This document shows, one piece after another, positions 50,833-51,361 of a stretch of DNA of 64,000 bases. The stretch lies in sequence record OP688485; one strand, 5' to 3'. The notes under the pieces were generated by a model that worked only from the letters and a program-made list of their open reading frames with translations, made no database searches and was not told the origin of the DNA. Position 1 is the stretch's first letter; each line of letters opens with the position of its first letter. Origin of the DNA: Escherichia phage EP_H11. A program made the translations under genes and the position numbers.

Positions 50833-50842
50833 TAGCTGAGTT

Positions 50843-51300
50843 CTATTAAGGCACCTAACGGCCTAATAGTTGCTCTTCCGTAAAACAGATTCGATAGTCT
50901 GGGAAGAGCAGCTATATACTCTCATTAAGTAATGCGTATACATAGGGCACGATTAAGTTACGTCTCCGGCTATGGTTGCATTACGAATAGTTAGGTAGTG
51001 TCCCTATTCAGATTGTCCGGAACTGGATAGAGGATGAAGGTATTGTCGAAACCTTAGTGGGGACTGATGCGAACTACACTAAGGTTTATACCCTCTCAAC
51101 ACCTTTAGGGGCATCTACGTAGTATACCTTGCGTCACGCGTAGGGTGAGCGAGTTAAAGCCCAAAGTGGCTTTAGGGAGCGAATCCCAGGGGGAGGCTCG
51201 GGTGGGCAAGGTCAGACTCTCCGGAGGAGTTTAGTCTCGTGTACGCGGCGGCTGGCAGAGCCGCCGCTACACTCCAATTGGTTAAATTAGATAAGGGGCC
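50843..51300. ncRNA. candidate structured non-coding RNA / cis-element in the largest ORF-free gap
   Basis: Part of a 529-nt gap (50833-51361) with no credible ORF. Stems: 50843-50869 (9 bp), 50871-50910 (9 bp), 51049-51087 (11 bp), 51156-51173 (6 bp), 51245-51267 (9-bp GC stem GCGGCGGCT/AGCCGCCGC). Strand and class unknown. Confidence 0.3.
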
Positions 51301-51361
51301 GGTAGTTCCTACGTCCATTAGTTTAGGAGTTATTATTTGATTATGTTGAGGAACACTATTA

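Follow-up and report, generated by a model that had tools for sequence, protein, structure and literature searches.

A gene-free gap in a tightly packed genome

The stretch of DNA analyzed here (the window) comprises 64,000 nucleotides (nt) of Escherichia phage EP_H11 (OP688485), in which a 529-nt gap at positions 50833–51361 lies between two small (+) strand genes coding for proteins of 56 and 77 amino acids (aa). An original prediction, made from the letters of the sequence, had described this gap as free of open reading frames (ORFs). We found that it is indeed the longest (+) strand stretch without an ORF of at least 50 aa in the first 60 kilobases (kb) of the window, where genes are otherwise tightly packed on the (+) strand; the next longest such stretch before the strand switch near 60 kb measures 186 nt. 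Comparison of the gap with its homologues strongly supports the view that it encodes a conserved (+) strand RNA of ~480 nt, predicted to form three domains of several helices each, with three hairpins at the 3′ end. This RNA represents a new lineage-restricted family, and we detected no relative of it in Rfam or in the collections that we searched.

The gap has a GC content of 40–57% and is rich in inverted repeats. An ORF of 92 aa on the (−) strand (51172–51450), doubted from the outset, proved absent from a diverged homologue of the region (L016, described below). A candidate micro-ORF of 29 aa with a GTG start (51145–51234) was rejected, being broken by +1, −1, and +2 indels in two other copies (L005 and L013). 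Indeed, alleles of the gap differ by indels of −1, +1, and +2 nt, i.e., not by multiples of three, and share no conserved ORF.

The gap and its surroundings are 93–98% identical to Escherichia phage vB_EcoM_IME392 (MH719082, 116 kb), whose GenBank record carries no annotation under the matching region. IME392 is cited as a "genetically unique" phage in the reference list of PMC12210895, and PMC12686479, where it discusses thymidine-hypermodified genomes, places it among phages with a YerA41-like DNA polymerase. The IME392 DNA polymerase shares only ~30% identity with its counterparts in the nearest phages of our collection.

Homologues of the gap in diverged lineages

Downstream of the same 56-aa gene, IME392, ~15 metagenomic contigs, and the two diverged lineages L016 and L023 all have an equivalent gap of 509–531 nt. 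The metagenomic contigs were recovered by exact-protein look-ups of both flanking genes, and their gaps measure 529–531 nt. L016, found via a 66%-identical cluster of 119-aa proteins, has the same order of 56-aa gene, 509-nt gap, and 77-aa gene. Between the window and L016, DNA identity is 68% in the flanking genes and 77% in the 5′ half of the RNA. Across the RNA, 23–29% of positions differ, with helices kept despite rewritten sequences and with invariant blocks of 18–23 nt. The length and position of the gap are kept while the neighboring proteins fall to 64–66% amino-acid identity.

L023 (1672–2184 and 2185–2373) has a mosaic structure: the 56-aa gene and the first ~33 nt of the RNA resemble the window, the RNA beyond ~50864 resembles L016, and the 77-aa gene gives way to an unrelated gene for a 62-aa protein (MSHIFLILIF...) whose N-terminus appears to be hydrophobic. 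The switch near 50864 places recombination breakpoints inside the RNA.

The conserved core of the RNA was recovered by nhmmer and covariance models in all IME392-like contigs, L016, and L023. Searches by blastn yielded no further homologue in 50,697 phage records and none in E. coli genomes, and scans with invariant-block patterns gave no match in IMG/VR viral contigs (four patterns), JGI metagenomes (one), or GTDB genomes (one). Likewise, the flanking proteins had no match in viral contigs, covariance model R3 matched nothing in the first 50 kb of Acinetobacter phage Ab1-TPeters (the nearest DNA-polymerase relative of similar genome size), and no second copy of the RNA occurs elsewhere in the window. 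The 97.9% identity of the RNA to IME392 is part of a larger mosaic block (48.85–51.4 kb), and we therefore discarded the idea that the RNA is more conserved than its flanks in that comparison, the high identity not being RNA-specific.

Covariation and strand specificity

Three covariance models were built from near-identical window-type sequences and used to align all copies of the three lineages. Between the window and L016, 31 of 118 hand-registered pairs had changed on both sides, and 29 of these 31 still pair (binomial p ≈ 1e-10, taking a 6/16 chance of pairing as reference). Across the alignments, the share of cells that are paired reached 96.7% in the 5′ domain, 98.6% in the central domain, and 97.0% in the 3′ domain, compared with 30–43%, 27–51%, and 25–45%, respectively, in slid controls with partners moved by 1–3 columns. 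The three domains contain 13, 4, and 11 doubly changed pairs, respectively, and in each of them none of 500 shuffles reached the covariation score. Altogether, the RNA has 19 helical segments, eight of which show compensatory changes across the three lineages.

The pairing is also strand-specific. On the (+) strand, the helices include 7 (window) or 10 (L016) G-U pairs but not a single A·C, while the complement would carry 7–10 mismatches; the object under selection is therefore a (+) strand RNA, in gene sense. In comparison, folding energies are less informative. The minimum free energy (MFE) lies below that of dinucleotide shuffles on both strands (z = −3.6 and −4.0 for the (+) and (−) strands, respectively), and among 113 windows of 529 nt from the same phage, two had an MFE at least as low, one of which (start 50785) overlaps the region; after correction for GC content, z was −1.9. 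Hairpin density alone is hence not convincing, and covariation is the decisive evidence. Among the readings originally offered, a structured phage noncoding RNA is strongly supported by this covariation, by the restriction of G-U pairs to the (+) strand, and by conservation across diverged lineages; a degenerate intron, a replication origin, and a packaging site found no such backing (see below).

Predicted fold

The conserved sequence extends from the 56-aa stop codon through the hairpin at 51294–51310. Its features, with helix lengths in base pairs (bp), are as follows.

50833–51314, (+): conserved core of the structured RNA, ~480 nt, from nhmmer and covariance-model matches
50849–50864, (+): small hairpin AGGC/GCCU with loop ACCTAACG, invariant in all lineages
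50866–50915, (+): hairpin S1, a 14-bp stem with a 6-bp inner stem (50886–50891 with 50896–50901), doubly changed pairs
50929–50984, (+): hairpin domain S2 with stems of 8, 5 (CATAG/CTATG), and 3 bp and invariant loop ATTAAGTTA
50995–51118, (+): central domain, with S3 (50995–51006 with 51106–51118) as putative closing helix
51007–51027, (+): S4, inside the central domain
51029–51043 with 51088–51096, (+): S5, inside the central domain
51049–51087, (+): 11-bp hairpin S6 at the tip of the central domain, four pairs doubly changed in L016 and L023
51126–51212, (+): 3′ domain, closed by the long-range helix S7 (51126–51132 with 51206–51212)
51137–51151, (+): SA, inside the 3′ domain
51156–51173, (+): SB, inside the 3′ domain
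51186–51201, (+): short hairpin with a G-rich loop, inside the 3′ domain
51126–51218, (+): hypervariable segment, from the variable-column table and the alignments
51219–51229, (+): hairpin S8, CUCC-GGA-GGAG, closing pair C-G replaced by A-U in L016 and L023
51239–51272, (+): GC-rich hairpin S9 of 5 bp plus 9 bp with one bulged C, one double change in the outer stem
51294–51310, (+): last conserved hairpin, AGGG..UCCU (S11), stem invariant and loop variable
51315–51361, (+): poorly conserved linker with the ribosome-binding site GAGGAA of the next gene

The 5′ part of the fold is made up of the S0 loop, S1, and S2. The motif ACCTAAC (50853–50859) is perfectly complementary to the invariant GTTAGGT (50990–50996), and this long-range ACCUAAC/GUUAGGU pairing, neither side of which varies, is possibly a closing helix of the 5′ domain. 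S1 exists in three sequence versions (window, L016, and L023), all of which pair: AUAGUUGCUCUUCC/GGAAGAGCAGCUAU in the window is rewritten as UAUCAAUAUUUACC/GGUAAGUAUUGGUA in L016, and L023 has a third version. The stem originally placed at 50871/50910 is real and extends to 14 bp (50866–50879 with 50902–50915), with 11 of the 14 pairs changed on both sides within the family. A 9-bp stem proposed for 50843–50869 has a 3′ arm that overlaps this covarying stem, and AGGC/GCCU (50849–50864) alone survives of it. Near-identical copies differ at the fifth pair of S1 (50870/50911), which is U-G in the window, U-A in L010, L013, and L005, C-G in L015, and C·A in IME392 and L014, i.e., a compensatory pathway caught in the population, including a mismatched recombinant.

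Two long-range pairings had been suggested around S2, together forming a pseudoknot. The first, GTAATGC/GCATTAC (50929/50977), holds as the outer stem of S2, rewritten from GUAAUGC/GCAUUAC to GCAGCG/CGUUGC; in L016 and L023 this stem has two double changes and one change to G-U, and the inner stems are invariant. The other arm, TAGGGCAC/GTGTCCCTA, has an A·C mismatch in L016 and L023 and competes both with CATAG/CTATG and with GTGTCCCTA/TAGGGGCA, the putative closing helix of the central domain.

In the central domain, S3, S4, and S5 hardly vary, and the S5 bulges GATGAA and TGTCG do not vary at all. Changes in these three helices are one-sided (G-C to G-U and U-G to C-G), with a few mismatches, and S3 of L016 has two C-to-U changes that produce G-U pairs. 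The predicted helices S3, S4, and S5, including the closure of the central domain by S3, are consistent with the alignments but unproven. At the tip, the 11-bp stem proposed at 51049/51087 (S6) is borne out by its double changes, having been rewritten from AAACCUUAGUG/CACUAAGGUUU to AAGCUGUAGAG/CUCUACAGCUU; in half of the IME392-like copies, A51050 is replaced by G, giving a G-U pair.

In the 3′ domain, S7 occurs in three fully different versions, ACCUUGC/GCAAGGU, AGGUUGCG/CGCAACCU (L016), and GGUUAGUC/GACUAACC (L005 and L024), with six of seven pairs changed on both sides, and the closure of the 3′ domain by S7 is proven. In every allele, SA is present with a triloop of purines. SB, originally noticed as AAAGCC/GGCTTT at 51156/51173, covaries in L013, where A-U is replaced by G-C. 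The proposed hairpin GGGA-GCGAA-TCCC (51174–51187) is lost in L013, L005, L016, and L023. In two alleles (L005/L024 and L013), positions 51126–51218 are replaced as a block with the helices kept, in genomes that are elsewhere 97–98% identical, which points to recombination with more diverged, still unsampled relatives. This pattern suggests that the hypervariable 3′ domain is peripheral or specificity-determining.

Among the terminal hairpins, S9 includes the stem proposed at 51245/51267, so that four of the six stems first put forward are real and two (50843–50869 and 51174–51187) are unsupported. At the S9 loop (51254–51258), the window has GGCAG, L012 has GGCGG, and the other copies have CTGCC or CCGCC. 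The loop is thus inverted between perfect 9-bp arms, a DNA-level flip typical of palindromes, and its flipping shows that the loop sequence is not under selection. In L016 and L023, the linker downstream of S11 lacks ~25 nt and cannot be aligned.

Comparison with known RNA families

A search of the whole window against Rfam 15 at the gathering score gave no match. The search covers group I and II introns, RNase P, tmRNA, 6S, ROOL, GOLLD, OLE, HEARO, raiA, riboswitches, and self-cleaving ribozymes. With the threshold relaxed to E ≤ 10, the Infernal scan that had been advised along with the original prediction matched no family in the gap, the only hit in 50600–51600 being a chance mir-242 match on the (−) strand, and the divergent alleles of L016, L023, and L005 gave no match in the RNA at E ≤ 5. 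ARAGORN found no tRNA, tRNA-like, or tmRNA gene in the window, and no tRNA-clan family matched at E ≤ 10.

Several motif-level resemblances were considered and rejected. Short RNase P-like matches (CAUAGGGCA) are without covariance-model support. A CsrA-type sponge would rest on ~12 GGA motifs counted by eye, where composition predicts ~10. The group I-like pair AGACU/AGUCU, which resembles conserved R/S core elements, is not kept in L005 and L016, nor does L016 keep the hammerhead-like CUGAUG..GAA in the S6 loop. Lastly, a tRNA-like minihelix with CCA after S9 has no CCA in L016 and L023.

In descriptive terms, which imply no homology family, the RNA belongs with the large "ornate" noncoding RNAs: it is longer than 400 nt and noncoding, and it has covarying helices and invariant unpaired blocks. 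ROOL and GOLLD are large "ornate" phage or prophage RNAs with Rfam families, and their cryo-electron microscopy structures are described in PMC12286853. Like them, the gap RNA is several hundred nt long, phage-borne, and without an ORF, with many conserved helices and invariant junctions and loops. Unlike them, it has no covariance-model match at E ≤ 10, is not beside tRNA genes, is confined to a single narrow phage clade, and sits inside a protein-coding operon without its own promoter-like element or terminator.

The tRNA clusters of T4 and T5 offer another comparison. The T4 species 1 and 2 RNAs are stable small RNAs co-transcribed with tiny ORFs in the tRNA cluster. As in these clusters, the gap RNA would be an RNA gene among very small protein genes in one transcript, and in T5-like phages the homologue of the 56-aa gene is flanked, within the tRNA cluster, by tRNA-Thr on one side and further small ORFs on the other. 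However, the cluster RNAs are tRNAs or tRNA-like molecules of 75–140 nt, whereas the gap holds a single RNA of ~480 nt in which no tRNA was detected.

Presumed transcription unit and flanking genes

The RNA lies in a short unit of small genes bracketed by two copies of a promoter-like element.

50198–50236, (+): upstream promoter-like element, CCGCTCTTT..AGGG..AAAGGCTGTTAA..TGT, opening the unit that holds the RNA
50310–50669, (+): 119-aa gene, first cistron; only three clusters in 5.8 billion proteins, syntenic in all copies
50662–50832, (+): 56-aa gene (phrog_7747, phrog_15108), always directly upstream of the RNA
51362–51595, (+): 77-aa gene, last cistron, an exchangeable passenger and not part of the RNA
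51596–51634, (+): next copy of the promoter-like element, closing the unit

The promoter-like element is ~40 nt long (consensus CCGCTCTTTnnAGGGnnnnnAAAGGCTGTTAAnnTGT) and has 16 (+) strand copies in the window, all in intergenic gaps before genes or short gene groups. Its AGGCTGTT motif lies at 3035, 6384, 7225, 9566, 11305, 13441, 15297, 18881, 22482, 32908, 38069, 45026, 50221, 51618, 54333, and 55408. Judging from its position, the element probably serves as a promoter of the phage itself, perhaps together with a terminator or a signal for processing, and it is presumably what the original prediction had called a class I element. L016 and L023 have promoter-like elements at corresponding places. 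Since the RNA has no such element of its own and shares the bracketed unit with the 119-aa, 56-aa, and 77-aa genes, we infer co-transcription in a short polycistronic transcript. A scan of the gap found no intrinsic terminator; the hairpin at 51245–51267 is followed by CTACACTCCAATT, which has no U tract.

The 56-aa gene ends in TAATAG and keeps its position in IME392, L016, and L023. Its protein aligns end to end with homologues in T5-like phages and in the T4-like Citrobacter phage Merlin, e.g., at 2501–2668 of sequence L029 (T5_ev212) and 2489–2680 of sequence L028 (Merlin). The family (MFKLL.. to ..KLY) occurs in ~180 phage records, mostly T5-like, in which the gene sits inside the tRNA cluster right after tRNA-Thr. 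This placement is suggestive of a possible link between the family and stable-RNA loci.

The 77-aa protein has no Pfam or PDB match. It is 94% identical to its counterpart in L016 (1613–1846) and 87% identical to that of Seuratvirus phiG7, where no RNA precedes the gene; a further copy lies at 3003–3239 of contig L002, and the gene is full length relative to its Seuratvirus homologues. The pattern suggests a small gene that is strongly constrained and exchanged horizontally. Both flanking proteins (56 and 77 aa) are unrelated to each other and to the Seuratvirus gene pair. We rejected the RNA as a partner of the 77-aa gene because the gene occurs without it in Seuratvirus and in four other contig types, and we also rejected a pairing of 50866–50928 with the start of the 77-aa gene, which is lost in L016 and lacks its target gene in L023. 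In Seuratvirus (siphophages of the Queuovirinae), the 77-aa homologue stands between DpdA-adjacent genes and DNA polymerase genes.

Possible roles of the RNA

We see an even chance that the RNA is an autonomous module, i.e., a stable, probably processed RNA that acts in trans or as a scaffold of an RNA-protein complex. This reading draws on the size of the RNA and its long invariant unpaired blocks, on the poor conservation of the segment touching the next ribosome-binding site, on the exchangeability of the next gene, and on the constant 56-aa partner, whose T5 homologue sits among tRNA genes, which yield processed stable RNAs. Under such a scheme, the RNA would be made with the small-gene, probably early, transcripts and would not be a switch dedicated to the downstream gene. 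S1 and the GC-rich S9 could shield the ends of the processed RNA, the long invariant loops and bulges might be tertiary contacts or partner-binding sites, and the fast-evolving 3′ domain may be a peripheral element that tolerates, or gains from, allele exchange.

Several points weigh against an autonomous module. The family is very small, covering two sublineages of a single phage clade, and the processing, stability, and action in trans of the RNA are all things that we infer. Both the hand-set registers and the model-fitted alignments lean towards the proposed structure, and S3–S5 and all proposed tertiary contacts, being invariant, are without covariation support. Moreover, the RNA is only modestly more stable than the coding sequence of the same phage, and it ends ~50 nt before the next start codon without a promoter or terminator of its own, as would fit a cis-acting intercistronic element.

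A bolder version, which we regard as speculative and on balance unlikely, would make the RNA the first representative of a novel class of large phage RNAs and give it its own activity (catalysis, higher-order self-assembly, or host-factor sequestration), with a peripheral 3′ domain that is swapped among co-circulating phages because it is specificity-determining or host-targeted. Few large RNAs have many covarying helices, and almost all of the known classes are ribozymes, riboswitches, or cellular machines, with ROOL, GOLLD, and OLE as the remaining puzzles. The novelty described here applies to the RNA as a family and not necessarily to its function. The host phage is cultivable (IME392, on E. 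coli), which makes the RNA experimentally tractable, and the family provides a natural example of one RNA domain exchanged between near-identical genomes.

The main rival to an autonomous module is a cis-acting intercistronic element that controls processing, stability, or translation initiation of the downstream cistron, or shields the upstream cistrons from decay, and never acts as a free RNA. We consider this possible though doubtful, with a mobile ribozyme, a DNA site, and chance far behind. Besides its place in the operon, the RNA shares with riboswitches and 5′ leaders a location immediately 5′ of a same-strand ribosome-binding site, and it ends just before that site in all three arrangements; in window-type sequences, RNAalifold also pairs GUUCU at the 5′ end weakly with GGAAC in the region of the ribosome-binding site. 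However, ~480 nt and at least 12 helices far exceed known leaders, being two to four times the typical size, and there is no conserved expression platform and no Rfam riboswitch match. The segment beside the ribosome-binding site is the least conserved, and both the pairing of that site with the 5′ end and the complementarity of 50866–50928 to the start of the 77-aa gene are lost in L016. Nor is the RNA dedicated to one gene, as the 77-aa gene follows it in the window and L016 but the unrelated 62-aa gene in L023.

It is improbable that the RNA is a mobile ribozyme (intron-like or otherwise self-cleaving), either of a novel type or surviving as a remnant, that inserted between two genes. Its size and multi-domain architecture resemble catalytic RNAs, and group I introns of phages in particular share its size range, long-range helices, and lytic coliphage host genomes; mosaic breakpoints also lie inside or next to the RNA (L023, near 50864), and domain alleles have been exchanged between near-identical genomes. 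Yet no group I or II intron or self-cleaving ribozyme matched the window or the divergent alleles at the thresholds given above. The RNA interrupts no gene, since the flanking ORFs are complete, with full-length homologues, and are unrelated to each other, which also speaks against the degenerate intron first suggested. Furthermore, no second copy was found in the window, in annotated phages, in complete E. coli genomes, or in the contig collections scanned by conserved blocks, and no endonuclease or reverse-transcriptase gene lies nearby.

Still less probable is a DNA-level site (a replication origin, packaging signal, or protein-binding platform) whose hairpins act as cruciforms or in single-stranded DNA. 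The gap is the longest noncoding stretch on the (+) strand, its inverted repeats are abundant, and the flip of the GC-rich hairpin loop between copies is a DNA-level event at a palindrome. Against this, the 7–10 (+) strand G-U pairs would be A·C on the other strand, and covarying helices spanning 80–125 nt are not explained by cruciform extrusion. We also found no AT-rich block or inflection of the cumulative GC skew at the gap, and no iterons, direct-repeat arrays, or direct-repeat families in it beyond chance two-copy matches, so that the origin and packaging site of the original prediction receive no support.

A functionless spacer with fortuitous hairpins, for which one might cite a GC-corrected folding energy only 1.9 standard deviations below that of other windows of the phage and an IME392 identity shared with the larger mosaic block, is scarcely credible, being already contradicted by the covariation counts, with compensatory changes in eight helices and three lineages, by a length and position kept while neighboring proteins diverge, and by the tight packing of genes elsewhere in the window.

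Additional observations

Positions 17000–20200 of Ab1-TPeters form a low-coding stretch in which the record annotates many "hypothetical proteins" of 30–60 aa on both strands. This stretch holds genes for tRNA-Arg (18399–18475) and tRNA-Met (18862–18936), which are unannotated in the record.

The window also contains a second repeated intergenic element, TTATTTTTCAAATAA..CGATTT..TAAAGCCCGTTCTTTTGGGTGGGGCG, presumably the class II element of the original prediction, which had correctly described the gap as carrying neither class. Its five copies lie at 2214–2290, 24948–25045, 28805–28870, 33020–33085, and 36518–36585; each is followed by a GC-rich hairpin-like sequence, and the element possibly represents a different promoter class.

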